A DNA stretch of 64,000 bases from assembly GCA_964187785.1 (NCBI GenBank), contig OZ076409.1:11410001-11474000 (forward strand), given 5' to 3'. Positions 7,801 to 54,923 of this stretch are shown here, in pieces (position 1 is the stretch's first letter; the number at the start of each line of letters is the position of its first letter). The notes under the pieces are model-generated. The model saw nothing but the letters and a program-made list of their open reading frames with translations, was not told where the DNA came from and made no database searches. Source of the stretch: Amphiscolops sp. MND2022. Its lineage: Eukaryota. A program made the translations under genes and the position numbers.

Positions 7801-9220
7801 GTTCATAGGTATACCCTATACTATTGGAGTCGTCATCGCTCCTTAATGCGCCGCTGGTTAAGCTTTCCGCCCTTCCAGTCTCACGATCGGTCATGCTGTC
7901 AGCATCGGAATCGGGAACTGAAGTCCTATTGTAAGGAGCGCTTGAGTTTGATCTGGCTGGCAAGGCAGTGCTTAGATTCAGTCGTCTTGCTCTCTCAATG
8001 AGATCCTCCATCATCGCATATGAAGCTCGGACACTCTCGTCAGCAACAACCCTCAATATGCTCTGCATTTGGTCGGAATTGAGTGCGATAGTAGGGTGTC
8101 CCCTGGGCAGTTCAATGAGACTAGTTTCTTCAAAGTAGTGATTAATGATGGCCCTGCTGGTATTACTTAACCGGTGAACTTCGGGTCCTTTCACGTTCTG
8201 CTCGCATGTCGATTCGTCGGCGTCTTAGCCAGAGGTGATGTCAGTGGGACTAAGGTGCGCCACAGAATGATGAAGTAGAGCGTCTGCAAGTGTCGATCTC
8301 GCTGCCTCGATGGAAGTTGCATTTGATGGTAGTGATAAGTCACTTTCACTCATGTGGCCTTCAAGACACTCAGTCTCAACATCAAACTGGCTAACCTCAG
8401 TTATAAAGACGTCGTCTTCCCCCATCGTGGAATCTTGCCCAGCCCTGTCCTGAGCTTCAGCAACATTAGGTGGACTTGCAGTTTTGACGTTGACAGCCGG
8501 TTTAAGTGGAGAAACTCTACCCCTGCGGAGACGTGGATCGGCAACGTAATTGTGATCTGGATCCAAGAAAGATACTGCTAGAGGCGCAGTACTAGTAGAG
8601 TCTTCATAAGTAGACATGTTCAGTCCAGGAGTGAGCTCCATCGACTCAGACTGACTTCCTTTTGCCCACAGAATAGTGACTTCTTGTACTGGCAGATCAT
8701 ACTCACTTCCGCCAAGTTCTTCCATTCGCCTGGTGAAATAGGTTTGGCAACTCTCTTGGGAACTACCAGACTCTAGTGGGACATCATCTTTATGAGGCTC
8801 ATCGGACTGCCCGGTTGTGGGAGGATCAATCATGTTAGCATCTTCTGCATCATTCGTCTCCATTAACTCTGATTCAAGATTGGCCCCGATCGATAATTGG
8901 ATGCCCACAACTTCCTCTCGCTGGACATTAGCTATTTGCGGCGACGAAGAAGTCAACATCTCTGGCTCGGGCTCATTTGACTTAAGGTCAATTACCAAAT
9001 TTCCCTGGAGGACATCTTCAATCTCAGGAGAATCCAAGATTGGCAGTACGTTTTCTGGCTCACTAGACCTAGCGGGCTCTTGGCCGGCTTGTTGAACTGA
9101 ACTTGGGACATTAGGTTCCAGTCTGTGAGTGCTTTCTCTACAGGATGGTTGGCCATCTTGCTCTTTGTCTAAATGAAAAGAGATAAATTCACGCGGTTCA
9201 CTTCCAGCAAATAAATCCAT
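4859..9220 (-). pseudogene. Antisense spliced accessory gene of element A (zinc finger plus hAT-like body, ~1350 codons, two premature stops)
   Basis: Exons 9220-7019, 6910-6425, 6354-6220, 6154-6073 and 6003-4859 are joined by GT-AG introns of 108, 70, 65 and 69 bp that keep the frame. In-frame stops at 8225-8227 and 7094-7096. CQIC-x16-H-x5-H finger at 7400-7480. Aligns with the antisense gene of B. Confidence 0.82.
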
Positions 9221-10385: not shown

Positions 10386-11198
10386 ATGAATTTGCAGTTC
10401 AACTTAGAGGCACTAACTACACCGGCGATAAGTCCTAGTTATTTTTCCTCGAATGAGGATATGGACGTTGATATAGAATCCGTTGACGCAATCGGTGAAC
10501 CGTCAGGTGATAGTGACATCGAGGTCATTGCTTGCTACCGACATGTCCCGGTCCCCGAACAAGGATCAGTAGCGGGACGGCAGATGACAACTGAACTGTC
10601 TGATTGTACGGGCAGCGAGTTCCCACCTTTTCCTTGGGACGACTTCGAAGACATGCTGAGACTGACTGAGGATCAAGTGGACCCGCTAGACAGAGGAGCT
10701 GGTCCTAGTGGCGCCGCTCAGACCGGAAGTCCCCCGATTAAACATTGTGGAAGTCTCACACCCTTAGTAGATACTCCTCTCTCGCCCCCACCACACGAAC
10801 GCGGTCCGACTTATGGTCCCTGTGGCGATAACTTGCCCCCGTAGCTTGATCAACCGTTACCTCTGAGTTCACATACACAAGGGATCAGCGTAAGAATGGC
10901 CTCCCATTGTGGACAGCCTAATACAGCGACATATGGAGATTGCATAGTGTGTGGGCGAAGCTATGAGCAGATAAAGGAAACTGCAGTTTTAGATTATCTT
11001 GAGAATACTACTAATCTGCACGAAACTTATGGCGAACGATTGAAAAGGAGAGCAGCCTACTTAGCAGGAATGGACCAAGGCACTGTACTTTTCGTCCCTA
11101 GGAAACTGTCGCAGGCGGCCGCCTGCGACGGCAACTATTATCAAACACTAGTGGACGGAGATAACACCAACCCACCGCCAGGTGTTTTGCCAATTTAG
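10386..11198 (+). pseudogene. 3' sense accessory ORF of element A (~270 codons, one internal stop) running into the 3' LTR
   Basis: ORFs 10386-10844 and 10896-11198 are in the same frame, separated by one TAG at 10842-10844. Acidic/Pro-rich N-terminal half and a CxxC motif. The last ~30 codons lie in the inferred LTR, and the YYQ...TNPPP tail recurs in the solo LTR at ~53290-53345. Confidence 0.7.
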
Positions 11199-12705
11199 AA
11201 CATATTAGACTTTTGGCCTATTTAGCCACACCCAAAAACTAATGTTAGTACGGAAAACTTGGTTAATATTATGTTTTAGTTGAATAATATTTCATTTTGT
11301 GCCCGATTGGAACTGTTGCTAATTGTTTTGTAATTGGCAGTGTAAAGTTGATAACAGCTGTAAAATGCAATTAATTTGCTAGCAATCGGTACAAGGAAAC
11401 GTGTTCAAATACTTATTTGGTCTCGCTCAGCGTACACTCGGTCCAAATAGTATTAACCAATCACAGTGCTTCATTTGTGCTATACTTGTGCTTATTTTAC
11501 TGCCGCCGCAAAGACTTTCAGTCCAAAGCGGAATTAATCACGTGACCTAACCATGTACTGCAATTTGAGCGCTGTTGATGAAGTCAAATAGACTTGTAGT
11601 ACAATTTATTAGAATGCTACTATTATCCATTCATGTAGTGTTGCTGTTTAGTTAGAAGCATGTAAATAGCATATTTAAAGTTAGAGAAATTTCACAATAC
11701 CAATGTTAGTAAACTGTTAATCTGATTCAATCTCGCTTAGCCGCTTCCCTTTGATGCTATTTTTATCATATAATCATGATGAAATGATGACGTAATGTCG
11801 CTAGACTTGCCCTAAAACCCCATAAAGTGCTATTTTTAGAAGCATGACACGCATAATTTTGCGTGTCACTCTGACCAAGCTATAAATAGCAGGGACACTG
11901 AGGTGCAGGGACAATTCTTTTGATGAACAAGATACAATTCAGTTGATACTACATTTGGTATACGCAGTATTGAGTTCTGTTAACTCAGTTAACGTTCTGT
12001 TGATTGGAATAATTTTGTTTGTGACGATACACAATTGACCTTAAAATCACGCAATCTTCTCAATGCCTTCAACAAGAAAGCAAAAGGCTAAAGAGAGACG
12101 CTCAAGGCAGTTAGACATGCTGTCCGACGCAGAAAATGTTGACATAATGCTAGGGAGTTACTCTAGAGATGATGAAGAGAACAATGTTAGCGAAAATGAT
12201 GTGAATTTAGACTCAGGGTCTAGTAGACCGCAACAAAGTACGAATATCATAGGGGAAAATTTTAGGTCTTTACTTAATACCAACAGTAGAGAAAACAGCG
12301 AAATTACCATAGAAACAACTACATTGATCAACGATGAAATTTCTAGCCAATTGAGTAGGAAGCTCAATGAGATTAAAACAAGCCTGAATTCTCAGATACA
12401 AAACGCAATTTCAGCTGTAATTACTAATACAGTGCTTCCCTCCATTCAAAATACCCTTAATATGCAGGGGGAGCCCAATTTTACCATTATGAACCCAAGG
12501 TCCAATGAGCCACAGCAAGGGTTAAAAGCAGCCAGCTCAGCCAGCAAGGACTTAAGGTCTAGTGAGCGACAACAGAACCCCGGAGCTGAAATAACACAGG
12601 AAACCTGGGGAAAACGTTCTAAAACGTCCCCACTAGAAGGAAATCGTAGACACATGTCTAGAGATAGTTCAGAAGATTCGTATAATAGTGAACAAAATCA
12701 CGACA
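11107..12705 (+). repeat. 3' LTR of element A (~1.6 kb)
   Basis: TGTCG...CGACA inverted termini. Collinear similarity with 53277-54923. The left boundary is inferred because the 5' LTR is outside the window. Confidence 0.75.
11881..11890 (+). promoter_or_regulatory. TATA box of LTR A (TATAAATAG), with upstream CCAAT (~11457) and TGACGTAA (~11787) motifs
   Basis: All three motifs occur in the same order in the diverged solo LTR (CCAATCACAG ~53676, TGACGTAA ~53996, TATATATAGTAGGGAC ~54088). The TATA box is ~180 nt upstream of the Gag-like ATG. Confidence 0.6.
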
Positions 12706-33488: not shown

Positions 33489-33903
33489 CTATTGGACAAG
33501 CCTAATTGTTGTTATAAACTTATTGTTACGACTATTGTTCGGTGTTGTTTTAGAACTAGTCGCAGTTCGTGTCTTGACTGGGGTGGACGTTCTTGTTACG
33601 GAGATGTTTTCTTGGTCAGAATCAGAATCTTGTATGTTCGAACTAACTGTGCGTTTCTTGTTCGTAGGTGCTATTAATTTGAGCATTTCCTTTTGATTTT
33701 CGGCTAATATCTTTGTTAGATCAGTCATTATTTCTTTCCTCAGAGTTGTTTTCATTTCCTCCAGGTTTTCAAGCTCAAGTCTAGGATTTTTACTAGAACT
33801 AGGTATCAGGTTTTCAATAGAGCCATTTTCATTCAGAGAAACTTCGAAATCTCCTGACACTAACTCAGCTACAGCTTTCCTCTTCTGGCTTCTAGTTGCC
33901 ATT
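33489..33903 (-). CDS. Copy of the Gag N-terminus (MATRSQKRKAV...NNSRN) in the 3' LTR, reading into flanking DNA
   Basis: Nearly identical to the first ~126 aa of ORF 46682-48166 and diverges exactly at the LTR end (33524). Confidence 0.85.
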
Positions 33904-35868
33904 TTGATTGAGAGAGAGAGAGAAAGTATCTTTGGAAAAGTTGAATTCTTCAAAGATTTAAGTTTTCTTTTGGATACGTTATAGTAACGGAACAAAACTG
34001 ATTGTTACAAGGCAAGTCAAAAAATTGTAACTTTACATGTATGTACTACATATTTATACTTTCCCAGCATCATTTGTTCCTCACCTAAAAATTCCTAGGT
34101 ATCACAAAAATCGGGTTTGTTCAACAAAAAGCGCTAATGATTCATATCATTTCAGTGCCGCGTCGTAAAATCAGGCTTCAAAATTCCTAGTTGCGTCAGC
34201 GTCCCGTAAAATTTGTTGAAATCATTTTTGTTCAGGCAATCCCATTTCCTGTTTAAGTCTCAAAATTGCGGTAAAATAAAAGTCTAGCTTGCATTTTCAT
34301 CAGCGTAAGCACGCCGACATGAACAATTAGTCAATTTTCAATTTGGGAAGCTGAGATTCGAAGCAACAGAATGACACTCAAAAATGGTGACGGAATGACG
34401 ACGGAATAAATCAATTTGGAAGCGGATGAAAAACATGGAAATTTGGTATAAAGGAACAAACGATGCTGAAATTATAATCTCAAATTCAAACATATGAATT
34501 ACCTGCTAATGGTATGCTATATTGTTTACATTGAACACAAATTAAGTCCAAACGGGACTTTAACGGGATACAACAAAGATGAGCGCAACATATTCGTAAT
34601 AATAAACGGAAAGCAACTTCAACACTTTGCACAATAATCATGAAATTTATCAAAACATAATCGAAATCTGGTCATTAGCCCGATTGTTATTATCATAAAA
34701 TACAACTGTCACTACTGACTTGAAGCCGATGAATTGACGTTGACCTTACGTCCTATGTTAGGATTATTGTTAAGATATTTTAAGTGCCGTAGTAAATCAA
34801 GTAGATTTGTTCCCTTAAGGAGGAACTAAGTAAGGCGTAATGTCAACGTGTTTTAGTGATTTACCATGATGATACAAATCCAGAACATAAAATTACCATT
34901 GCAATTTTCTATCATTCTTCCTTACAGTACAGTTTTCCTTATGTAAAATCATAACTCTTAAATCTTTCAAATGCATCGATTTAAAGGGCTTCGTTTGGAT
35001 TTCGTTTGAAGCAGTATTTTTCATTTGCGATTTTACAATTCGCTCCGTAGGTGCTACGTATTAAGATTATCTATAGCAGAACAGCGGAATACAATTTTAC
35101 AATCCGCACCGTAAGTGTTCCGTACGTATTGAGATTGCTCATAGCTTAGCTGTCGGACCAAGCGGAGAGAAAGCGGAGTGCGTAGGTGAATTCATTCTCT
35201 TTCTCTTATTCCAATTGGTGTTGCTAGGGGCAACCGAAATTGATTCTATTTGACTTAGCTAAGAATAGTTCTATCAATAGAGTGACGTTATCGGTCCGTA
35301 GAAGCAAAATTCCTAATATTAGCTCAGTAGATTGACGTTGCCATAGCGTTGTAAATATTTGCCTAAATCACTTGGCTGTGCTTTAAGTGAATATTGACAA
35401 CCACTTCATCTCTGGAAAACAATTCCGCTCTATTATTTGTCTGTTCTTTTTCATTTTAGATTGTATGAATTCCGTTGGGATCTCGGAATTGAATTTTATT
35501 TTAATGTTTTCATTTTAGTGTGGACCAGTGGAAAGAATGATCCCAATTATAAATGTTCATTTTAGTGTTTAGATTAGTATGGCAGAAAATCAGAAGATCA
35601 TACCGGAAGTGAAAAATCTTATCACGCACGGAGAATATTTAACCGGAAGTTTTAGCTAAAAATCATTTCTGAAGAGTGTTCCGTAACGTTTACGTTAGGT
35701 TTTGTATTTGGAAAATTATCTGCAATCGATTTAGCTGTACTGTAAGTAGAATTTAGATTAGTTTAAGATTAGTTTAATAGAGTTTACCTCGGCCTTGTCC
35801 TCGGCCTCTTCCAAAGCCGGGTATGCCGCTACAGCAATAGAAATTACGACCGGGAGCGGGTCGTGACA
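33524..35868 (-). repeat. 3' LTR of element B (2345 bp)
   Basis: Near-identical to 47788-50124: about a dozen substitutions plus 2-bp and 6-bp indels, counted by eye. Confidence 0.96.
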
Positions 35869-37272: not shown

Positions 37273-40200
37273 ATGAGTGAAAACGCTGTTCCTCCTGATG
37301 TCTCTGGTTTTCTCAGTGGGCATGAGACTAACTTGTGCTTCACTGAAGACGACGCTTATCCCTCGGAAACGGAAGTTATAGTTACTTCTTCAGGTTGGTA
37401 AAAATCTTTCTGACTTCTTGGGTAGTAGGGCTCTTTTTGTTTTGGTGATCAGCCTTTTATAGTCTTACCCGTATCTCTGACGCGTCTGAACCAGATCTTG
37501 ATTTTCAGTAACTCAACCTGGAACTTCCTTGACTGTTGTTTCCGCTACTACTACGGGTGGGACATCTGCTACCCCCATGGGGTTATCTTCGCTGGGTTCT
37601 TCTTTGAAGCTGCCTCCAGTGACTTCAGTGCTGGTTCCTGAGCAGTCCATTAATGATGTTTTGACAACATTGCTTCCTGCTAATCCTACTACTGGATCTT
37701 CAGTAGTTCCGGGTGTTGATGTCTCTTCTGCAGCTCCTCCTGGTTTGTCCGAAGTAGTTCCGGGCGTTGATGTTTCCTCTGCAGTTCCTCCTGATTTGTC
37801 CGAAGTAGTTCCGGGCGATTTTGATGTCAGTGTGGAGCCTCATGAAGGTGAGGCTGCTACCACCTCCACAGGAGAAGAAAGAACTGTAGAAGAGGAGGAT
37901 ACTCCAGTCTGTAAGTTGTGTGTTTGTGTGATTGGGTTCTTTTGTTGTTGTTGTTTTTTTTGTCAACTTGTTGGTTTCTGTTTTCCATTTCTTATCACTC
38001 TTGTGTTGTAGGTTCGAAAGTGTTTCCATTCCGGAAGACGAGCGTGAAGTTCATGGAATCGTCTCCGAAATTGAAAAGGACAACACGGGTCGCAGATGTT
38101 GATGCTACCTTGAGTGGTTGGAGTGGGGCAGAAGACGTATCATTCTCGGCAACTCCCGTGTCACCCGAAATGATGCAGCTGGGTCGTCAGTTGGCTTCGA
38201 CGGTAGAGGAGCGTACTGCTCGGCAGATACAGACAGGTGAGTTGTTTATTTGTGATTGGCCTCTTGTTGGAATGGTGTGTGGTACGTTGCAGCGACGTTT
38301 GTTTTGGGTGTTACATTTGTTTGATTGGTTTTGTGTGTGTTATAGGCTTCAGCGAGCTTGTTGAGAAAGTGGAGAGTCACTTTGAGCGCCCGAAGGCGAA
38401 GAAGTATAGCAGTCGGAAGTTGTTGCATCGTCGGATGCTAGCGCTGAATCCATTGTTTGCTGACTTCGTGACGGGTTCGGAGTGTGGAAGTGCAAAGGTC
38501 TTCTATTGTCGCATTTGTAGAAGAGACGTAAAGATGGGCTCAAAAGGGGCAGCTGAGTTTGTTCGTCATTTTGAGTCGAAGAAGCACTGGGAGCAGGACG
38601 TCACATATCGTGTGCACATGGGTCTCCCTGTGTACAACAAGCTAATGGAGCCCATGGAGCTGAGTGCCCGACAGAGGGACGATTTCCTTTCACGGCCCTT
38701 CGTGGATTTGGGCGGGGAGTTTCCTTTCCCTGAGGACATGTTGCCCAAACATTCAAAGGCTTCTTCGAAGGTGCCACTGATGACTCTCGTTTCAAGTTTG
38801 AGTGATGTGTTGCGCAGTGGCGGGGATTTCACGTTGGTTCGTCGTCTGTGGGGCTACTTCCTTGCGTCTCTGGGCGGTCGGGATCCGGAATTCTCTCTAC
38901 AGTGGAGTCGCTCAGAGACTGTGGTTAGTATTTTTGTGTGTTTGGTACATTTAGTGGGTGGTGTTCTGTTATGTGGTATTTGCTCCTTTTATTGTAAGCC
39001 GCTAGGTGACCGTAAAGATGTACTGTTGTGTGATTTCGCTCTCCGTTGTTGTTTGTTTCCTCTTCCTTCTTCTTTTCATTTGGGTGTTTGTTTCAGTCCG
39101 TGTTGTGTCAAGGCCTTGTTCCCCGAGTGCTGCGCGTGATGTTCAAGAACATTGGGCAATTTCGGGAGTATTCTCTGCAGTATGAAAAGGATACGGAGGT
39201 AGAACGTTGTTTCGTTCTCTTCTGGGAAGACAACTATTTGAAGAAGGTATGTGTCGGTTGTGAGTCGCTGCTGCAGCATGTGCCAAAACCAGAGTTGCTG
39301 CCCTTGGCACGAGTCGTCTGTAGTTTACCGTCTGGGAAGTTGCCTTTGGCTATAGTCGGCGGAAGTCCGTCCTTAGTCCGTGTCTTGAGTGACACTCGCG
39401 CTGACAGTCGTGTCTTTGTGTCTTATCAGCCCTTCACTAGTGAGATGTTGATTCGTTGTATTCGGCAAGCCTATCAGGACGTGTTCAGTATGATGGAGGT
39501 GACTTCCCTGGTGGATTATACCGTGTTACGTTTGAAAACTGCCATTTACGAGGACTGGATGGAGGAGAGAGCCATACTGTGTAAAAGTGTTCGTCAGGGC
39601 CACGTGGAATTCGCTGATTTGCGGGAAGTACTGTCAGATCTGATAGAGTTATGGCCTTCAATACGTCCATTTGTTCGATGTACTGGTAACCCTGAGGCTA
39701 AGGACAAGGCTGAACGGGTGAGTGAAAATTGTTCCTTCCGTCCGGTGTAGTTGCGGTGTTACTTTTTGTCATATCATGTTGTGTATTTTAGCTACAGGGG
39801 ATTGATTGGTTACTAACTGCCGATAATATGATAACGTATCGGTTCAGTCTGCTGAAAGTGATCCTTGATACTTGTGAGTGTTTTCTTTTGAGTTGATAGA
39901 TTGTTTTTTGACTGTTGTTGACTGCGTATTTGTTCGTATTAGTGGCTGTTCTTTCCTGTCTTTCTCTTTTGTGTATTGGGGTAGGGTTGTTCTTCTGTTG
40001 TATACGAATCATGGTGTATGTTTTAGTCTACAACAATTGCCCCAGATTTCGACAGGATCAGGCGGATTATGCTTTCCGCGCTTATGGCGAGTTTTGCAAT
40101 TTTGTGTATTGCCTGCTCTTGAAAACTCGCAGCACCAGTGGTCTTCCTGAAATTCATGCTTGGGAGTGTTACATGGATGTCGTGAAGGCCCGGGATTTCG

Positions 40201-41327
40201 CTGTTGTTCCGTGTGATTCTTTCCTCTCTAATCATGACTTGGGGAAACAGTTATCCGCAGGCAAGACGAAAGAGTATGTGGCTTTCCGACTTCATTGTCG
40301 TCAGTTCGTTGATCGTCTGATCATCATTTTACTGGAAAGCACATATGCACGTTCTGTTATTGCTAAGGGGATGTGTAGTTTCTGCCCCGAGTTGATGCTG
40401 GAAGGCGATGATGTGGCCGTTTTCAGTCTATTTGCGGATTTGTGCCGTATTCTTGTATCCTGTGGTTCGCTGAGTGTGGACGAAAGTAGTGCAGCTTTGG
40501 AGGAACAGGCAAGTTTCATTGTGGAAAAGCGTGGGTATCATTCTTCGTCAGGGCAGTCTGCTGGTGACATCGTGAATGTGGTGCCGTACCTGCTCCGTGA
40601 TGTTGGGTTCTTGTCACGACCACATTTGCTCCGGGTATTCAAGTTGTGTTGTCTTGTCGCGGGAGTGTCTGTCTCACGCTATCCTGCCGTGTCTCTGGAT
40701 TTATCTGAGTTTACGTTGAGTGTTGCAGACTTTCAGAGCTGTGTGCAACTGGTGCAGTCTTATATATTGAGCGAAGGGTATTCGCATCAATCCTTCTTCA
40801 GTGATCAGACTCTTATAGTTGTGAAGAAGGCCATCGCAGATGCTGGTAGATTCTTTGGAGCGTCTGACTTCAGTATGTGGACAGATTTTTGTAGGGAGGA
40901 TGTAGATGCCTTTGTTGTGAAGTATAGTGCCTTATTTACTACTTTCCTCGCAGAGCGCCGGAAGAGCTTCGATGCCCGTTATGTGGAGTACAATAATTCA
41001 AATCGGATGTCCCGTCTATCTGATAGTGGCGATACAGCTGGTTCGAGTGGTTCCTTGAGTTCTGTGATCCAGCGGAAGAGGCAAGATACAGGTCCTCCAA
41101 GTGGTGTTTCTGTGAAATCTGGTGGCAGTAAGTCAAGTAATGGCGGAACGAAGTCGGAGTCGAAGTCTGCTACTATTTCGTTTAAAAGGAAGCAGCAGAA
41201 AAACGTCGGTGGTGATTCGGGTGGTGGAGCTGGTTCATCTAAAGGAAGAAAGAAAGCTGTGCGAGATGCTGATGATGATGATTCTGGTAGTCAGCCGAAG
41301 TCTAAGAAAGTGTCCAAAAACTGTTGA
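37273..41327 (+). CDS. Seven-exon antisense accessory gene of element B (1109 aa; zinc finger plus hAT-transposase-like body)
   Basis: Exons 37273-37393, 37509-37910, 38012-38236, 38346-38923, 39097-39717, 39792-39873 and 40027-41327. All six introns are GT...AG and T-rich, with phases 1,1,1,0,0,1, giving one uninterrupted 3330-nt frame. CRIC-x16-H-x5-H finger at 38507-38587. Confidence 0.85.
37703..37820 (+). repeat. 51-bp coding tandem repeat (VVPGVDVSSA(A/V)PP(G/D)LSE, ~2.3 copies)
   Basis: Units start at 37703, 37754 and 37805, within exon 2 of the antisense gene. Confidence 0.85.
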
Positions 41328-41475: not shown

Positions 41476-44400
41476 CTAGTCTTGAGTTGGACGTGAGTCC
41501 TCCGTAGTAACTGAGTCAAGCATTCGAAAATCAGGATTGACATTGGGTTTCGGATTAGGTCGTAAGTTGTATCTTCCCACTTTTCTAGGGTTATATCCAA
41601 CGACGATAGGCGGCAATTCGGGTGTTTTGGGAGGGCTGTGTATCGGTGGTGGGGTCAAAATATATGGGTTATCGCTGACATCTAGGTCAAATGACGTTAT
41701 ATTGTCGGAAGGTGTTTTGTCTTCTGCAGTATTTTCATTTGTGGCTGTTTGAGCCACGTCGTTTTCCATTGTAGGTGCGTCTGTGGTTATTTTAACCACG
41801 TCATTTTCCACTATACTTTCTTTGGTGGTTGTTTTAACCACATCATTTCCCGTTGTAATTTCGTCGTTTCCTGTTATGTCTTCGATTTCTGTAAGTGTAG
41901 CTTCTTTGGCGGCGTTTTCCGTATTGTTTCCGAACAGAACTTCTCCGAATTCGGTTTCCCAAGCTTGCGCGTACCAATCATTGTGGGTTGTTTTAACCTC
42001 TTGGTCTGGAAGGTAATCTTCCCTTCTGACTGTTACGTCAGGTACTCGCTGATTGGGCGCATATAGCCTTAGGCGAATTCTGTGGAGGGTTTGAGTATAC
42101 CTAGTTCTCGTGCGGCGTACGACGTAGTTGTTGTTCGAGAGTACTTTGACTACTATGTAGGGTCCAGTCCAAATGCAATCTTTAAAGGCGAATTTCATCG
42201 ACTGGTTGTCTGCCCTCGGATTAAGGACGTAGCAGTAGTCGTTGACTTTGAGTGGCGTTGCTGTCGCTTTCTTGTCATAGTACTGTTTGTACTTTAAGTA
42301 GGACTGCATTAGATTTTCTTTGGCGGCTTGGTGTATTTCGGATATTTGCTTCTGTAGTTGATCAGTCAGTTCTTCGTTGTTATCTTTTTTCCATTCAGGT
42401 TTCAATCCGAGTTTTATGTCTAGGATGTTGTACGGAATGCGTCCGTGAAATACTGTTGTGGGTTCACAACCTAGGCTTTCATGATAGCTCGTATTGTAGT
42501 TCATGACCGCGATCTGGACATATTTATGCCACATAGAGCGTCGTTCTCCCGTTGATATCTTTAGGGAGGTTTTCAAAGAGGCATGAGTCCTTTCTAGGAT
42601 GCCAATTGTTTGAGCGTGTTTCGTCGATGCGTGGCTTATCCGTATATCCAGTGTTTGTGTTATTTGATTGACTACTTCTGACCTGAATTGTGATCCTTTA
42701 TCCGTTAGAATGACGGTCGGCAGGTAGCAGTGTCGTGTCATGACGTCTATTATGCATCGTGCGACTGTTTTGGCTGTCATGTCCTGTGTCGGGTAAGCGA
42801 AAAGGTACCGCGAAAAAACATCCATCATCGTTATGATGTGTTGGTATCCATTTGAGGAAGGTAGATTTGGTAGAATGTCTACTTCTAGGCAGTCTTCTGG
42901 TCCCATTGTGAATTCAGTGTTGCTTAGCATTTTGGGACGTATTTGTCTTGTGTCAATTCTTTTATTGGCAATGCAGTCTTGACAGCTGGTTACCCAAGCT
43001 CTGATTTTACGTGCAAGACCCGGGAAGTAGTATTTCGCTCTGCATTCTTGTATCATTTTTGTGATTCCTGGGTGTTTATTTGTTTTCCCATGTAGAGTGG
43101 CCAAGAGTTCTGGGACTAGGTGTTTCGGAATTATAATTTGATTATGGGTGACTGATCCGTCTTCTCCGTAGTATTTCCGCATCAGAACTCCATTTTTCAT
43201 TATGATTCTTTCTTCATGGCGTAATAGGTTTCGTCCTCGTGGTTCAGTTTTGAGAAGGTGTTTGTCATATTCTTCGTGTGAGATCCGTTGTTTCAGTGCT
43301 TTGAGGAGAGGGTCTGCATCTTGCTTGTTTCTGATCCGTGCATTTTCTTTGATTGCACCGAAGGAGTAGACTGCGGAGTTGAGTGGTATCTTGATGACTT
43401 CGGTTACTTTTGTTGATAGTTCTCTCTCATGTTCGTCTAGGGCGCGTCGTTTGCTGAGTGCTTTTCGGGCAAAGATTTCTTGTTCAGATTCATCTTCTTC
43501 ATCAGGTAGGAAGAAAAGTTGTTCTTCGTCAGCTACATCTGATGATTGTAGATTGACCTCAATTGGGGACGTTAGGATGTCGTCTCGTAGTTTAAGTTGT
43601 ACCTTTTCTTTCGGTGTAAGTTCGAGTCTTGAGAGAAAATCTGCTGCTGTGTTTTGGGAGCCTGCTACGTGCATAATTCGAAACTTGAACTGTAATACAT
43701 AGTCGCAGGCATTCCAGAGTGCAGGGGGTGTCGTTTTGGTCTGGAAGAATCTCGTTACTGAGCGGTTGTCTGTTAAGACCAGGGTTGGAATTGTTGCTTC
43801 CCATAGTATGTGACTGTATTCGAGGAATGCATGATAGATTGCTAAGAATTCCTTGCAGTAGATAGACATTTTCAGTTGTGCAGGTGAAAAAACTCGTGAT
43901 CCGAACGCTACTGGTGCGAAGGTTTTTCGTTTGGAGAGTATTTTGCGTTCATCGTTCTCCTCAATCATGAGGGCGTAGCCTGACGCACGAAAGCTTGCAT
44001 CCGTCATTAGGACGTATTGTTTTCCTGCTATGGGCTGTCGGAGCGCAAGTCCACAAGCTTCCGCTAAACTGGCGTTAATTTCCTTAAAGTTATCGACAAG
44101 TTCTTCTGACATTCTGATCTTGGAGTTTGCTTTAAGAAGTTCGTACATGCCGATGAGCTTTTCTGACAAGCGCGGTATGTAGTTGCGGTAATAGTTAACA
44201 AAGCCAATGTATTTTTGAACCTGTTTTTTGGATTTGGGGAAGCGGACTTTGGAGAGGAAATTTTTGACTTTTTGATCTTGCGGGGCTACTCCGTCGGGGG
44301 TGATGGTTCGGCCAAGGAATTCGATTTGGGTTACTCCGAAATGACATTTTTCGATAGTTAGTTTTAGTCCTGCTTTCCTAATACATTTGAAGACTGCTCT

Positions 44401-46761
44401 GATGTTTTTTATGAGCTGTTCCGTTGTGTTTGCGGCAATGCCAATGTCATCTACGTATTGTGCACATTGATCGGCTTTGATGACTGAGTCCAGATACTCA
44501 CGCATGAAGCTCGAAAAGGCTGATAGGGCTCTGCTTAGTCCTTGTGCCAGGCGACGATAGGCGAACGTCCTACTAGCGAAATTAAAAGCAAGTAACTCTA
44601 CTGACCTTTGGTCTGCCATTTGAAGGCAGTGATACGCCTGGGAGCAGTCAAGTTTGCAGAATAGTTTTTTCCCTGCTAGGTGTTGTGCCGCATCTGAGAG
44701 GGTGCTGACAGGGTGGTTATTGTTGATGTAGTCATCTGCTATGAGTGCGTTGATTTTGCGCAGATCCACCAGTAGTCTCAGTTTGCCGTTGGGTTTCCGT
44801 TGTGCAAATATAGGACTGGCGTACTTGGAGAAGGGGAGTGTCGTGATGATGCCGTATTTGTGCATCAGTGCCAGTTCCACTGTTAGGTCTTCTTTGAGGT
44901 TGATCGGGACAGGTAAGCTCTGTGTGTAGACTGGTTTGTCGTCCTGTGGTGTTAGGCTGACTTTGAACTGTGTATTCATCCCGATATCTAGTCGGTGTCG
45001 AGCAAAGATGTCATTGAATTCAACAATGGTGTCCTCAAGGTTTTCACGGTCTTTGCCCGTAATTAGTGAGTCTGTCCATTTGAACATTGATAGAAATTTG
45101 TTGCGAGAGTCTTCGTTTTCGGTTGGGTCAAGTTTTTCTAGTTCGGCAAGGTCCCGCAGTTCTTTCAGGATTCGCTTTTGTATGGGCGAATGTTCTTGTT
45201 CGTTGCCTGGGTGTTCTGGGGTCGGGAACCAGAATTTTTCTTCATTGTCTTCTGGCCGTTCTACTTGCATTAGTGCGTTGATGTACGTGACCACATCGTC
45301 ATGGTCATTGAGGAGATTCAGGGCGGCAATGTCAACTGGACGGATCATCTTCGTTTCTTCGGGTTTCAGGATTTGCAGTTCGGCCATTTTGGTGTCGTTG
45401 GCTATTGTGTATGGAAAATCCGTGGTGTTGGCGATTTTAATTGGGAGCTTTTTATCTCTAGCTGTTGTAATCGCTGGGGCTACTATTACTTTCGCGCATT
45501 CATCGAATTGTGGTAGGGGTTGTATTGTGCCCGTTATTGGGTGCTCAATACTCACAGGGATTGTTGCGTAGATGACTCGGGTAGAGTGCGCTGGGATTGT
45601 ATGTTTGGCTTCGGTCTTTATCGTGATGGGTTTGGGATTGCACTTTTGTCTTTCGTCTGTGAGCGCCATCGTGATTTGGATCTTGGGAAAGTTGATGGTT
45701 CCCTGTGCCGTGTCAAGGATTGCGGCATGCTTTCGTAGAAACGCTAATCCAATTATGGGGAATGACGTTTGATTCATGATGATGAATGTTTCTTCAAAAG
45801 TGTAATCCCCTATTTTGAAGCGTAGAGTGTACGTGGCAAGTGGTTGTTCTAGTTCGGCATTGGCGTATTGCACTTTGAAAGGGGGTGGAGGTGCTTTGTT
45901 AACAATGCATTGACTCGCATTTTGGTGGAGTTTTTCAGCATCCCTTTCGCTAATAGCATTAATGTACGCACCTGAGTCGACTAAGGCTTCGATTTTGACA
46001 GTGTTGAATTCGATTGGTAAGAAGAGCATTTTCTTCTTGAGGGCAATTGCAGACATTAACGGGATGTAGTCGTCTTCCTTGTCGTGCTGGATGAATTCTT
46101 TGATGACATCTAGATCTTCTGGTAGTGTTGGGTGACATTCCGTTATTTCTTCGTCTTCAGCGGCTATTGCTGTGGCTGGCGCGGTTTGTGGTGGTGACGA
46201 GAGCGAAGCGGTGTTTTCTCGCTGTTCTCTTGCTTGTCGTGACCATATTGTTTTGTCTTCAATGCCAATGATGTTTTCGGCATCGATCGGTGTGGACGTG
46301 ATGGTGACGGGTGCTGTTGGGGACGGTGTTGTTCTTTTCAGGATCGGTGACGGCGGTGACGGTAGGTTTGTGATCTTCGTAGCTTGAGCTTGAGGGTTTG
46401 AGACTTGGATTTTGAAGGATAGTTTATTTGTATCATAGATGGTTGGTTCATCCCAAGGGTCACATCTGTAGTCTCTGTCATATATATAAATTCGGTCTGT
46501 TTTTGATTCCGGCAACGGTCTTTTGAGTGTCGCATAGTTATCGGGCGATTCTGTTATCCACTGGGGTAGTGGCGTTGGATCTTCTGGGTGTCTGGCATTA
46601 TGCCTGAGTATCATGCCTACGTTCCAACGGCGTTGCCAGTCTTGAGTTGGTTCTTCATTACATTCGGTTAAAAAATCTTCTTCATACCTGTTTGGGGGGT
46701 CCTCTATCGTGTACGCCCTCGCGTCTACTTTTTCCCCAAATCGTAGGCGCGGCGACTTTAA
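41476..46761 (-). CDS. pol: pol of element B (protease, dUTPase-like segment, RT, RNase H, integrase), uninterrupted
   Basis: LVDSGA; YVDD; TDAS...E...TDN...ADFLSR; HGKTNKH...CQDC; D..D..E; GPY. The frame stays open from the slippery site at 46761 through the 1712-aa ORF. Confidence 0.96.
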   Translation of the reverse strand, partial: LKSPRLRFGEKVDARAYTIEDPPNRYEEDFLTECNEEPTQDWQRRWNVGMILRHNARHPEDPTPLPQWITESPDNYATLKRPLPESKTDRIYIYDRDYRCDPWDEPTIYDTNKLSFKIQVSNPQAQATKITNLPSPPSPILKRTTPSPTAPVTITSTPIDAENIIGIEDKTIWSRQAREQRENTASLSSPPQTAPATAIAAEDEEITECHPTLPEDLDVIKEFIQHDKEDDYIPLMSAIALKKKMLFLPIEFNTVKIEALVDSGAYINAISERDAEKLHQNASQCIVNKAPPPPFKVQYANAELEQPLATYTLRFKIGDYTFEETFIIMNQTSFPIIGLAFLRKHAAILDTAQGTINFPKIQITMALTDERQKCNPKPITIKTEAKHTIPAHSTRVIYATIPVSIEHPITGTIQPLPQFDECAKVIVAPAITTARDKKLPIKIANTTDFPYTIANDTKMAELQILKPEETKMIRPVDIAALNLLNDHDDVVTYINALMQVERPEDNEEKFWFPTPEHPGNEQEHSPIQKRILKELRDLAELEKLDPTENEDSRNKFLSMFKWTDSLITGKDRENLEDTIVEFNDIFARHRLDIGMNTQFKVSLTPQDDKPVYTQSLPVPINLKEDLTVELALMHKYGIITTLPFSKYASPIFAQRKPNGKLRLLVDLRKINALIADDYINNNHPVSTLSDAAQHLAGKKLFCKLDCSQAYHCLQMADQRSVELLAFNFASRTFAYRRLAQGLSRALSAFSSFMREYLDSVIKADQCAQYVDDIGIAANTTEQLIKNIRAVFKCIRKAGLKLTIEKCHFGVTQIEFLGRTITPDGVAPQDQKVKNFLSKVRFPKSKKQVQKYIGFVNYYRNYIPRLSEKLIGMYELLKANSKIRMSEELVDNFKEINASLAEACGLALRQPIAGKQYVLMTDASFRASGYALMIEENDERKILSKRKTFAPVAFGSRVFSPAQLKMSIYCKEFLAIYHAFLEYSHILWEATIPTLVLTDNRSVTRFFQTKTTPPALWNACDYVLQFKFRIMHVAGSQNTAADFLSRLELTPKEKVQLKLRDDILTSPIEVNLQSSDVADEEQLFFLPDEEDESEQEIFARKALSKRRALDEHERELSTKVTEVIKIPLNSAVYSFGAIKENARIRNKQDADPLLKALKQRISHEEYDKHLLKTEPRGRNLLRHEERIIMKNGVLMRKYYGEDGSVTHNQIIIPKHLVPELLATLHGKTNKHPGITKMIQECRAKYYFPGLARKIRAWVTSCQDCIANKRIDTRQIRPKMLSNTEFTMGPEDCLEVDILPNLPSSNGYQHIITMMDVFSRYLFAYPTQDMTAKTVARCIIDVMTRHCYLPTVILTDKGSQFRSEVVNQITQTLDIRISHASTKHAQTIGILERTHASLKTSLKISTGERRSMWHKYVQIAVMNYNTSYHESLGCEPTTVFHGRIPYNILDIKLGLKPEWKKDNNEELTDQLQKQISEIHQAAKENLMQSYLKYKQYYDKKATATPLKVNDYCYVLNPRADNQSMKFAFKDCIWTGPYIVVKVLSNNNYVVRRTRTRYTQTLHRIRLRLYAPNQRVPDVTVRREDYLPDQEVKTTHNDWYAQAWETEFGEVLFGNNTENAAKEATLTEIEDITGNDEITTGNDVVKTTTKESIVENDVVKITTDAPTMENDVAQTATNENTAEDKTPSDNITSFDLDVSDNPYILTPPPIHSPPKTPELPPIVVGYNPRKVGRYNLRPNPKPNVNPDFRMLDSVTTEDSRPTQD

Positions 46762-48166
46762 TTTTTTGGCTGAGAGGACGTGGTAGGTACAGGTTGTTCA
46801 CTGATTTTGTTGGTTGGGATGGTGAATTCTCGTTTCTTCTTTCTGGGGTCATTTGCTGCGTTGGCTCCGTTCCAACAATTCTCAGTTTTGTGCATCTTGC
46901 CACATGTATCACACTTGGGTTTGGGTACTTCGTTTTGGGCTGGGTCTTTGTGTTTGTTTTGGCTGTATTATAACGTTCTCGTTGAAGTTTGCGACACTGT
47001 GCTTTGTAGTGGCCATATTTGCCACAGTGAAAACAATGGCCTCGTTGTTGTTGGTCTTTTTTATGGTCCGTCACTACAGCGTCCACTGTGTTGAGTGGGA
47101 CTAGGATTGTTTCATCGGGCGCACCTAGTCCGTTTAATCTCATCTCCCTCTCAAGATGTAAAACTATATCATTGTAGGGTTTATCTTCCAAATATGCTCT
47201 GTTGAGGATCTTTTTGACGTGATCCGGCATTTTGGCGTAGATTGCTTTATCAATGAATTTTTGTGCTTCTGAGCCGAAGGCTTCTTTTGCAGTTTTTTGC
47301 AGGGTGTCAAGGAACTCATGGAGTTTCTGTTTAGTGGGGTCAAAATGCAGGGCGTCCCACTCACATCTCGCTTTAGCGGATGATTGGAAATCACCAAAGC
47401 GGCGTTTAAAGGCCGTTATGACTTCTTCTAGGTTGTCTTTTTTGGTGTCATCTAGATTACAATACGCTTGTAGTGCGTTTCCTCGTAGGAGTGAATGGAA
47501 GTAGTTGATCTTTTGTATCTCGGTTAGGTGAGGATACATTTTGATATTGTTTCGGAATAGGTCCTCAAAAAGTTCAAACTTTTCGGACTTACCATCAAAA
47601 ACTGGGAGCGAAGCAGTGAGTGCTTTCGGCATTGGAAGTAGATTGGTTGATGGGAATGTCTGTGGTTGTGGTGCGAACAGTATCTTTGACGTGGATGGTC
47701 GGTCTTTTGGTTGTTCGCTGAGTATACGTTGTGCTTTTGGTCTTTTGGTGGGTTGGTTAGTGGAATCATTGAGGACTCCTGTCACCATGTTACGACTATT
47801 GTTCGGTGTTGTTTTAGAACTAGTCGCAGTTCGTGTCTTGACTGGGGTGGACGTTCTTGTTACGGAGATGTTTTCTTGGTCAGAATCAGAATCTTGTATG
47901 TTCGAACTAACTGTGCGTTTCTTGTTCGTAGGTGCCATTAATTTGAGCATTTCCTTTTGATTTTCGGCTAATATCTTTGTTAGATCAGTCATTATTTCTT
48001 TCCTCAGAGTTGTTTTCATTTCCTCCAGGTTTTCAAGCTCAAGTCTAGGATTTTTACTAGAACTAGGTATCAGGTTTTCAAAAGAGCCATTTTCATTCAG
48101 AGAAACTTCGAAATCTCCTGACACTAACTCAGCTACAGCTTTCCTCTTCTGGCTTCTAGTTGCCAT
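46758..48166 (-). CDS. gag: gag of element B (starts in the 5' LTR; one apparent frameshift between the two zinc knuckles)
   Basis: Capsid-like LPVFDG...KINYFHSLLRGNA and knuckle CFHCGKYGHYKAQC. The second knuckle CDTCGKMHKTENC (46875-46913) and the PKN* ending are in a shifted frame. Confidence 0.9.
46761..46767 (-). promoter_or_regulatory. -1 ribosomal frameshift heptamer A-AAA-AAT
   Basis: Immediately before the gag TAA. A -1 shift enters the pol frame. Followed by a potential stem CGCGcCTAC...GTAGaCGCG. Confidence 0.7.
47775..47787 (-). promoter_or_regulatory. Primer-binding site of element B (TGGTGACAGGAGT), possibly tRNA-Leu
   Basis: TGG directly follows the LTR terminal CA. The complement ACTCCTGTCACCA resembles tRNA-Leu 3' ends (from recall). 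It lies within the gag coding frame. Confidence 0.7.
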
Positions 48167-50124
48167 TTTGATTGAGAGAGAGAGAAAGTATCTTTGGAAA
48201 AATTGAGTTCTTCAAAGATTTAAGTTTTCTTTTGGATACGTTATAGTAACGGAACAAAACTGATTGTTACAAGGCAAGTCAAAAAATTGTAACTTTACAT
48301 GTATGTACTACATATTTATACTTTCCCAGCATCATTTGTTCCTCACCTAAAAATTCCTAGGTATCACAAAAATCGGGTTTGTTCAACAAAAAGCGCTAAT
48401 GATTCATATCATTTCAGTCCCGCGTCGTAAAATCAGGCTTCAAAATTCCTAGTTGCGTCAGCGTCCCGTAAAATTTGTTGAAATCATTTTTGTTCAGGCA
48501 ATTCCATTTCCTGTTTAAGTCTCAAAATTGCGGTAAAATAAAAGTCTAGCTTGCATTTTCATCAGCGTAAGCACGCCGGCATGAACAATTAGTCAATTTT
48601 CAATTTGGGAAGCTGAGATTCGAAGCAACAGAATGACACTCAAAAATGGTGACGGAATGACGACGGAATAAATCAATTTGGAAGCGGAGGAAAAACATGG
48701 AAATTTGGTATAAAGGAACAAACGATGCTGAAATTATAATCTCAAATTCAAACATATGAATTACCTGCTAATGGTATGCTATATTGTTTACATTGAACAC
48801 AAATTAAGTCCAAACGGGACTTTAACGGGATACAACAAAGATGAGCGCAACATATTCGTAATAATAAACGGAAAGCAACTTCAACTCTTTGCACAATAAT
48901 CATGAAATTTATCAAAACATAATCGAAATCTGGTCATTAGCCCGATTGTTATTATCATAAAATACAACTGTCACTACTGACTTGAAGCCGATGAATTGAC
49001 GTTGACCTTACGTCCTATGTTAGGATTATTGTTAAGATATTTTAAGTGCCGTAGTAAATCAAGTAGATTTGTTCCCTTAAGGAGGAACTAAGTAAGGCGT
49101 AATGTCAACGTGTTTTAGTGATTTACCATGATGATACAAATCCAGAACATAAAATTACCATTGCAATTTTCTATCATTCTTCCTTACAGTACAGTTTTCC
49201 TTATGTAAAATCATAACTCTTAAATCTTTCAAATGCATCGATTTAAAGGGCTTCGTTTGGATTTCGTTTGAAGCAGTATTTTTCATTTGCGATTTTACAA
49301 TTCGCTCCGTAGGTGCTACGTATTAAGATTATCTATAGCAGAACAGCGGAATACAATTTTACAATCCGCACCGTAAGTGTTCCGTACGTATTGAGATTGC
49401 TCATAGCTTAGCTGTCGGACCAAGCGGAGAGCAAGCGGAGTGCGTAGGTGAAATCATTCTCTTTCTCTTATTCCAATTGGTGTTGCTAGGGGCAACCGAA
49501 ATTGATTCTATTAGCTAAGAATAGTTCTATCAATAGAGTGACGTTATCGGTCCGTAGAAGCAAAATTCCTAATATTAGCTCAGTAGATTGACGTTGCCAT
49601 AGCGTTGTAAATATTTGCCTAAATCACTTGGCTGTGCTTTAAGTGAATATTGACAACCACTTCATCTCTGGAAAACAATTCCGCTCTATTATTTGTCTGT
49701 TCTTTTTCATTTTAGATTGTATGAATTCCGTTGGGATCTCGGAATTGAATTTTATTTTAATGTTTTCATTTTAGTGTGGACCAGTGGAAAGAATGATCCC
49801 AATTATAAATGTTCATTTTAGTGTTTAGATTAGTATGGCAGAAAATCAGAAGATCATACCGGAAGTGAAAAATCTTATCACGCACGGAGAATATTTAACC
49901 GGAAGTTTTAGCTAAAAATCATTTCTGAAGAGTGTTCCGTAACGTTTACGTTAGGTTTTGTATTTGGAAAATTATCTGCAATCGATTTAGCTGTACTGTA
50001 AGTAGAATTTAGATTAGTTTAAGATTAGTTTAATAGAGTTTACCTCGGCCTTGTCCTCGGCCTCTTCCAAAGCCGGGTATGCCGCTACAGCAATAGAAAT
50101 TACGACCGGGAGCGGGTCGTGACA
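47788..50124 (-). repeat. 5' LTR of element B (2337 bp)
   Basis: Direct repeat of 33524-35868. TATAAAT on the minus strand at 48314-48320, ~150 nt upstream of the gag ATG at 48166. Confidence 0.96.
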
Positions 50125-53276: not shown

Positions 53277-54923
53277 TGTCATTTGGTATTACTATCAAAT
53301 TCCCCAAGCATACGCCGAAACCAACCCCCCACCGGTAGTACTTTTCGTTTAGACCAATAAAAAATAAAGGCACTATAAGCTACATGTAATTTTGATGCTA
53401 TTGTTATGATTTTATATTTTTACCGTAGGGACATATAGTCCATACGGCCACGATAAAAATTAATACTTTAGATGTTAGAGTTTATTTTTAGTTGATTGTT
53501 AGTTAAATCTGTGCCTGATTTTAGCGAAATGTTGTTGAATATTGAAATGTCGATTTGTAAAAGAAATCAATGTAAACTTTGCTGAATTGAAAACATGCAA
53601 TCAAACGCAATTAGGAAACGAGTTCAAATGAGCTTCCAACGTAGCTTAGTGTATTCGCTGTCCTATATTAAACAACCAATCACAGCACAGTAATTATATC
53701 AATTTTGGTATAGCTGCGCAGACTTGTAGTTTGCCACGGTTAAATTACCACCTGACCAGCACTGGTACAAAACTGAAGTATATTACTGTAGCGGGACAGA
53801 CTTGTGGTCCGCTAAGGTGAAAATACTGAATCTATGCAAATTCTCTCACCATGTAGTGTTGCATTGTATGAAAGATACATAAAAACATCATATTCGGATT
53901 TAGTTGAATAGTGCTATATATAGAATTGAGACACTCGGTTGACACAGCTTCCCCTCCTAGTTTTGCTTTGATGCTACATTTAACCTGATGAACAGTGACG
54001 TAACGCTAAAGTCATTAAGCCTAAAATGACCCAGTTGCTATTTGTAGTAACATGATCAACACAAGTTTGCTTGTCATGCAAGGAAGACTATATATAGTAG
54101 GGACCAGTAGGCAGAATTCAATTATGTTCCTTCTTGACCTAAATCTACACGCACAAACTGGCACTTATTGGAATCACCAGTGAATTTGCTTTTTTATACT
54201 TGTTGTATTCGCTTTCTTTGTATTCAAGTAAAGATCCAAGACAACCAGTCAATTCACTGTTGCCAAATACAACCTTTCTTCAATGCCTTCAATTAGAAAA
54301 TAGAAAGCAAAAGAGGCGTTCTAGACAGTTAGACATCATGTCTGATGTAGAAAATGTTGACATAATGTTAGGGAGTTACTCTAGGGAAGATGAGAGAGAT
54401 GATCAGAATGAAAGTTAATTGAATCTGGACTCAGGGTCTATCAGGCCTCAGCAAAATTGCAACTTAGTTGGAGAAAACTTTAGGTCGTTACATATTACGA
54501 ATAGTAGAGAGAATAGCGAAATGACCATTGAAACAACTAGAATGATTAGCGAGGAGATTTCTAATCAGATGTCTAGTAAACTTAATGTGATCAAATCAAG
54601 CTTAAAATCTCTGATACAAGATGCAATTACAACGGCAATAGCTGGGAAAGTGCTTCCTTCTATCCAAAATACGTTAGATACACAGGGGAGAGCTAATTTC
54701 ACCGTGGTGGACCGAGAGTCCTGGGGGCTAGAAGTGAGCCCAAGGACGACTGATTTCACCGTGGCGGACCGAAGATCCAGTGGACTACAACGGAACTCCG
54801 AAATTGAAAACAACTCGAAAACGTGGGAGAATCGCCCCAAAACGTGTTCTACGCTGGAAATTTATAGACGAATGTCTAGAGAGAGTTCAGTAAACTCATA
54901 TTTAGGCGAACAAAATCGCAACA
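53277..54923 (+). mobile_element. Solo LTR related to the LTR of element A
   Basis: TGTCA...GCAACA termini, with flanks GTATG / GTATA (4 of 5 match). Contains the YYQ..TNPPP tail, CCAAT/TGACGTAA/TATA motifs and a degenerate Gag N-terminus (RRSRQLDIMSDVENVDIMLGSYSR...). Confidence 0.8.

Follow-up and report, generated by a model that had tools for sequence, protein, structure and literature searches.

Where does the Gag protein of an LTR retrotransposon begin when its reading frame can be followed from the capsid back across the primer binding site (PBS) and deep into the LTR? This question is raised by the window, the whole stretch of 64,000 nucleotides from Amphiscolops sp. MND2022 that we analysed. 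Our answer is that the element concerned belongs to a Ty3/gypsy clade in which gag starts within the LTR, 100-250 codons from its end, and continues across the LTR end and the PBS. The RNA of these elements is likely translated from the first ATG into a long Gag, with a front that is likely matrix-like. Taken as a whole, we regard this reading as quite probable.

The element in question, element B, is a young Ty3/gypsy element. It is an LTR element of 16.6 kb on the minus strand. Its 5' LTR (47788..50124, minus strand, 2,337 nt, TGTCAC...GTAACA) and its 3' LTR (33524..35868, minus strand, 2,345 nt) are 99.2% identical, with 11 substitutions and 2 indels between them. A target duplication of 5 bp, ATAAG, flanks the element at both ends. 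The pol gene (41476..46740, minus strand) encodes protease, RT, RNase H and integrase, which is the Ty3/gypsy order; the Pfam matches are at positions 194-301, 606-771, 837-971 and 1162-1331, respectively. Towards the end of gag, the frame of the window copy is broken between the two zinc knuckles. The usual gag stop site coincides with a heptamer, A AAA AAT (46764-46755, minus strand), and pol is in the -1 frame. Judging from this arrangement, the heptamer is likely a ribosomal frameshift site.

The gag ATG of element B is at position 48166, and 126.33 codons of the frame lie within the LTR. These LTR-coded codons (1-126, at 47788..48166, minus strand) consist of a basic tip (residues 1-15), a predicted helix (residues 44-76) and a remainder that is predicted to be disordered. 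The LTR ends at 47788 (..GTAACA) and is followed without a spacer by the PBS, TGGTGACAGGAG (47776..47787, minus strand), the complement of the 3' end of tRNA-Leu(CAG). Over this CA/TGG junction the gag frame reads NNSRN/MVTGV and continues without a stop into capsid sequence. The last base of the LTR and the PBS together form an in-frame ATG (M127). The remainder of gag (46682..47787, minus strand) holds a linker, the capsid (about residues 181-344) and the zinc knuckles. A preliminary description of this DNA had reported a TATA box, the ATG at 48166, about 126 LTR codons and the read-through, and all of these are present in the sequence. It had also proposed that the N-terminus of Gag is duplicated in the 3' LTR. 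The duplicate exists (33489..33902, minus strand; 137 codons, the last 11 of them in host DNA), but it starts at 33902 and not at 33903.

The PBS matches tRNA-Leu(CAG) of the same genome over 12-13 nt, and ARAGORN called a gene for this tRNA at two of the eight loci scanned. The 3' part of the primer tRNA-Leu sequence is also found in a tandem array with steps of mostly ~296 nt (G000:C8:35589243-35656977). This array makes up most of the listed matches among the 773 matches to the primer tRNA-Leu sequence.

Family A, also present in the window, has even more of its gag in the LTR. The 3' LTR of the family A element (11107..12705, plus strand, ~1.6 kb, start approximate) has its gag start at 12063 and contains 214.33 codons, as expected from the earlier claim of ~214 codons from this position. 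The 5' LTR of this element (L032) lies just outside the window, and its frame is broken after 67 codons. Of 10 other or related 5' LTR copies, 4 show that family A reads through. At 54280-54721 (plus strand), the window also contains a decayed piece of a family A LTR that has 74% identity to 12060-12503 and stops in its gag frame.

The other end of these elements has reading frames as well. A short purine run, AAGAGGAG, followed by CCC precedes the 3' LTR of element B, and in most family A copies the sequence before the 3' LTR is AGGGGAG. A sense ORF with no Pfam match precedes the 3' LTR in both families (36679-35774, minus strand, and 10386-11198, plus strand); the family A copy (10386-11198) contains one stop. 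In families A and B alike, this ORF crosses the purine tract and runs ~30 codons into U3, so that the LTR is coding at both ends. Antisense ORFs with a C2H2-like motif (37577-41327, plus strand, and 4859-9220, minus strand) lie between pol and the 3' ORF.

The gag-in-LTR layout is not a peculiarity of the window: it holds for the whole clade. The exact junction of CA and TGGTGACAGGAG occurs 7,527 times in the genome (control 1), and the same PBS occurs 290 times after a base other than A (control 59). Our sample was drawn from the first 92 junctions listed on contig C1 and comprises 90 of them; the two that stem from the window's own elements were left out. Above the junction, 68 of the 90 copies have 100 or more open codons in the gag frame, and no copy has as many in either of the other two frames. 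When the upstream sequence is shuffled, only 3 of 4,500 trials remain open for 100 codons, hence the open frames are more than chance would yield. The downstream gag is intact at 53 of the 90 sampled junctions, and 46 of these 53 have an ATG 103-253 codons upstream. Intact copies fall into 13 clusters at 80% capsid identity (median pairwise identity 48%), and the gag frame is in phase with the capsid in all 13; the copies and pairs counted throughout are related and hence not independent. To identify the coded stretch, we can turn to 20 of the first 30 copies, for which the far end was fetched. In 16 of the 20, the upstream stretch recurs at the far end and terminates at the same CA, thus the coded stretch is the LTR. 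Two of the remaining four are cut by the edge of the fetched region and two are without a second copy.

The same junction, with 129 codons above it, is found on a metagenome contig (L299), the one confirmed case among the 589 pattern matches listed. The best match of this contig, which is known from one LTR side, is only 70% in this genome, so it likely comes from another host.

Two further arrangements were observed among the copies in the genome. Head-to-tail arrays that apparently share LTRs give matches at steps of 14-16 kb, and some of their inner LTRs are followed by a PBS (G000: C1:94128546-94157667; C9:54613993-54661769; C12:14837368-14881035). An internally deleted copy, L087 (G000:C1:3825373), has 186 LTR codons that lead in frame into protease-like sequence, not capsid.

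The preliminary description had also asked whether the frame inside the LTR is conserved across copies. It is: the 126-codon frame is kept in 29 of the 30 closest copies of element B, and dN/dS indicates purifying selection. The LTR-coded part has a dN/dS of at most 0.28 in 13 of the 15 measurable pairs (19 pairs were compared), with p < 1e-4 in 17 of the 19. The two exceptions, with values of 0.58 and 0.39, are close copies with a dS near 0.1. When read in the gag frame, six family B pairs have pS values of 0.33-0.70 and pN values of 0.08-0.18. In the wrong frames, pN is similar to or greater than pS in five of the six pairs (frame +1) or in all six (frame +2). Hence, the LTR-coded part is under purifying selection in the gag frame only. 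Within the LTR-coded segment of family B, conservation is highest in the basic tip and the helix.

The position of the start codon can be examined in the 46 copies with an upstream ATG. The median distance from this ATG to the next in-frame stop above it is 9.5 codons (n=46). An open frame that ends just above the ATG matches the expectation for a genuine start. Lysine and arginine make up 31% of the first 15 residues versus 11% of those after (n=46), and a purine is present at position -3 of the first ATG in 21 of 46 copies. From its sequence, the LTR-coded part is very likely translated as the N-terminal portion of Gag.

The helix at residues 44-76 is predicted with a pLDDT of up to 87. Gag residues 181-344 are modelled as a helical capsid, for which the best Foldseek matches are PNMA2 and Arc, with a best E of only 0.009; in the Atlas, the capsid and CCHC part reaches 0.94-0.96 to Gag/CCHC clusters. 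The LTR-coded part had no Pfam match above the cut-offs in any of eight proteins and no usable Atlas match. A complex prediction for three copies of residues 36-85 gave a score of 0.19 (mark 0.32). Its position and make-up suggest that the Gag front likely plays a matrix-like role in targeting or assembly.

For the LTR codons to be translated, the RNA has to start above them. The TATA box, TATAAATA (48313..48320, minus strand), lies 154 nt above the gag ATG. A CA dinucleotide (48288..48289, minus strand) follows 32-33 nt past the first T of the TATA box, and we take it to be the initiator. Going by the TATA box, the RNA is predicted to start near 48288 and to have a leader of 122 nt. The motif TATAWA occurs 100-200 nt above the ATG in 23 of the 46 intact copies and 200-300 nt above it in 11 of the 46; the other six bins hold 1-6 each, and several clusters are without a TATA box. 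Of 14 representative copies inspected by eye, 11 have a CA 31-36 nt past the first T of their TATA box. With such a start, R and U5 together are predicted to span ~500 nt in family B, 379 nt of them coding, and ~785 nt in family A. The strong-stop DNA of roughly 0.5-0.8 kb and the largely coding R/U5 that had been suggested earlier agree with these predictions (0.50 kb in family B, 0.79 kb in family A, about three quarters coding).

Other properties of this region were recorded as well. One recombinant, L013, changes from one subtype to another at the position of the predicted RNA start. In a linkage scan of 30 family B copies, r2 is lowest (0.05) just above the TATA box, in a noisy profile. 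RNA folding from the predicted leader through the PBS yielded no unusual structure (z = -0.78), and no AATAAA is shared across clusters between 200 nt above the ATG and the LTR end. Placing the end of R with the help of recombinants was rejected, since a template switch in the 5' region leaves identical breakpoints on the left.

We propose the following sequence of events. Genomic RNA would start ~32 nt after the TATA box, and its first ATG, in the LTR, would be translated into one long Gag. This protein would consist of the basic tip, a disordered stretch, one helix, a linker that runs through the PBS, the capsid and the zinc knuckles. The Gag front would be copied in minus-strand strong-stop DNA. 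Hence, a transfer between two co-packaged RNAs would build a chimeric Gag, with the front from one parent and the capsid from the other, joined at the PBS.

The same frame could be explained in other ways. It could be an untranslated relic or a product of base composition, with Gag starting only at or below the primer site, and the often weak context of the ATG would suit such a relic. However, selection acts in the gag frame only, the shuffles that reach this length number 3 in 4,500, and the open frame stops just above the ATG. The relic reading is largely refuted by dN/dS, and we give it almost no chance of being correct. Selection could also act mainly on something other than Gag, either a spliced first exon or a free peptide made by 3' and solo LTRs. 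Every 3' and solo LTR does contain the promoter, the ATG and the frame, and the sense ORF without a Pfam match before the 3' LTR needs an RNA of its own. Yet no stop precedes the capsid and the phase with the capsid is kept in 13 of 13 clusters. Of 46 LTR-coded parts, 5 contain a donor-like GGTRAG site, without a common position, and the C-terminus of a peptide from a 3' or solo LTR is fixed by whichever host DNA comes next. Selection on an exon or a free peptide is therefore improbable in our view.

Alternatively, these elements may make two forms of Gag: the LTR ATG would yield the long form, and the junction ATG a short form that begins with the capsid and stems from an internally started RNA, like p22 of Ty1. 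Ty1 p22/p18 come from a subgenomic RNA according to PMC8458377. At all 53 intact junctions (of the 90), the junction ATG shares the frame of gag; it never falls in the other stop-free frame. Moreover, an unrelated element in the window with small LTRs of 168 nt (19678-14667, minus strand) starts gag at its junction ATG (19511), which is formed by CA/TGG. But the two starts are separated by 9 other ATGs in the median, and by 6 in the window copy, which makes leaky scanning to M127 unlikely. The junction ATG and its context are also dictated by the LTR end and the tRNA sequence, and the shared frame may be simple inheritance. Two forms are conceivable, but we would not expect them. Since the small-LTR element starts gag at the junction ATG, it also suggests an origin of the layout: an ancestral gag with a junction start may later have gained an upstream extension.

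Returning to the single long Gag, an exchange of its front can be observed in the genome: the LTR-coded segment has been swapped between lineages, likely in the course of reverse transcription. Four copies on four contigs (L129, L141, L181 and L189) form a chimeric lineage. Their distance from the window element is 1-2% over the first 700 nt past the PBS and 2-3% in U3, but 27-28% in codons 11-126. Over these codons, L129 differs from a second subfamily by 4-9%. The swapped segment is joined within 48243-48139 on the left and within 47803-47766 on the right. Trees of 15 rows, from which L199 was omitted for a deletion and in which groups were named after the distances had been seen, place the four chimeras with the window type in gag and with the other subfamily in the LTR-coded part (support 100/100 each). 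The tree conflict is significant, with AU p of 3e-5 and 4e-4.

The same swap pattern is seen in L085 of the L081 cluster. The swapped block starts 350 nt above the ATG (~660 nt above the end of the LTR), and it fits a strong-stop transfer only if the RNA of the L081 cluster starts where the block starts. Significant change points number 22 among 217 pairs. Nine of them, from about three events, fall at codons -18 to -3, six near codon -50 and seven downstream. This pattern suggests a breakpoint hot spot at the PBS, but breakpoints are found at other places too, and in further family B mosaics the switch lies above the TATA box or within the coding part. Intermolecular first-strand transfer, in which R/U5 of the primed RNA is joined to U3 of another RNA, is described in PMC6894440. 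In LTR mosaics that arise by first-strand transfer the regulatory region is mixed, whereas here the exchanged stretch is protein-coding, which results in a chimeric Gag.

How does the clade compare to known elements? Ty1 of Saccharomyces cerevisiae (Ty1/copia, Pseudoviridae) has a 5' UTR of 53 nt and a PBS at nt 95-104, inside GAG (PMC5454406 and PMC4974528). A gag start codon in the LTR and a PBS in the gag frame are both found here too. However, Ty1 has ~14 LTR codons compared to 103-253 here, where the LTR holds a selected protein module. Ty1 also has the copia order and a tRNAi-Met primer, whereas here the integrase follows RNase H and the primer is tRNA-Leu. Hence, the clade works like Ty1 in layout but is not a member of Ty1/copia. 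The competition of translation and priming that the preliminary description had proposed would have its counterpart in Ty1, whose priming site is within GAG (PMC4974528), a precedent missing from that description. The layout is a scaled-up variant of the Ty1 precedent and not a new principle.

With Ty3/gypsy elements (Metaviridae) the clade shares the order of protease, RT, RNase H and integrase, the Arc/PNMA-like capsid, the zinc knuckles and the target duplication of 5 bp. It differs from yeast Ty3 itself, whose PBS is outside GAG (PMC4974528), in that the gag frame here includes the PBS. Outside the clade, the best matches of the RT-RNase H stretch share ~26-32% identity with it, and the six outside matches that were looked up are all named as pseudoscorpion proteins. 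In the open literature we found no Ty3/gypsy gag with at least 100 LTR codons; repeat databases, most subscription papers and supplements, which lay outside the scope of this search, may hold one.

A further comparison concerns partial Gag proteins. Like Ty1 p22/p18 (PMC8458377), a partial Gag made by the element could interfere with assembly. Ty1 p22 is a C-terminal piece of the capsid with proven activity, whereas the candidates here, an N-terminal peptide from the LTR or the M127 form, are putative. If we extend this thought, the Gag front, a quarter to a third of the protein, could be a mobile module that is re-paired at the PBS. The cassettes of promoter, ATG and ORF in the many thousands of 3' and solo LTRs could then make orphan fronts that restrain the family in trans or seed new host genes. 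We offer this as speculation that is rather unlikely to hold in full.

Our results describe an oddity of Ty1 that is stretched about tenfold: the clade accounts for no fewer than 7,500 junctions in a single animal genome, and most of its R and U5 is predicted to be coding. If our reading is true, then strand transfer shuffles a protein domain, and each 3' or solo LTR is a start cassette aimed into host DNA. Gag annotation that begins from the PBS would misread these elements, and so would LTR-based dating, as some of the LTR evolves under protein selection and recombines.
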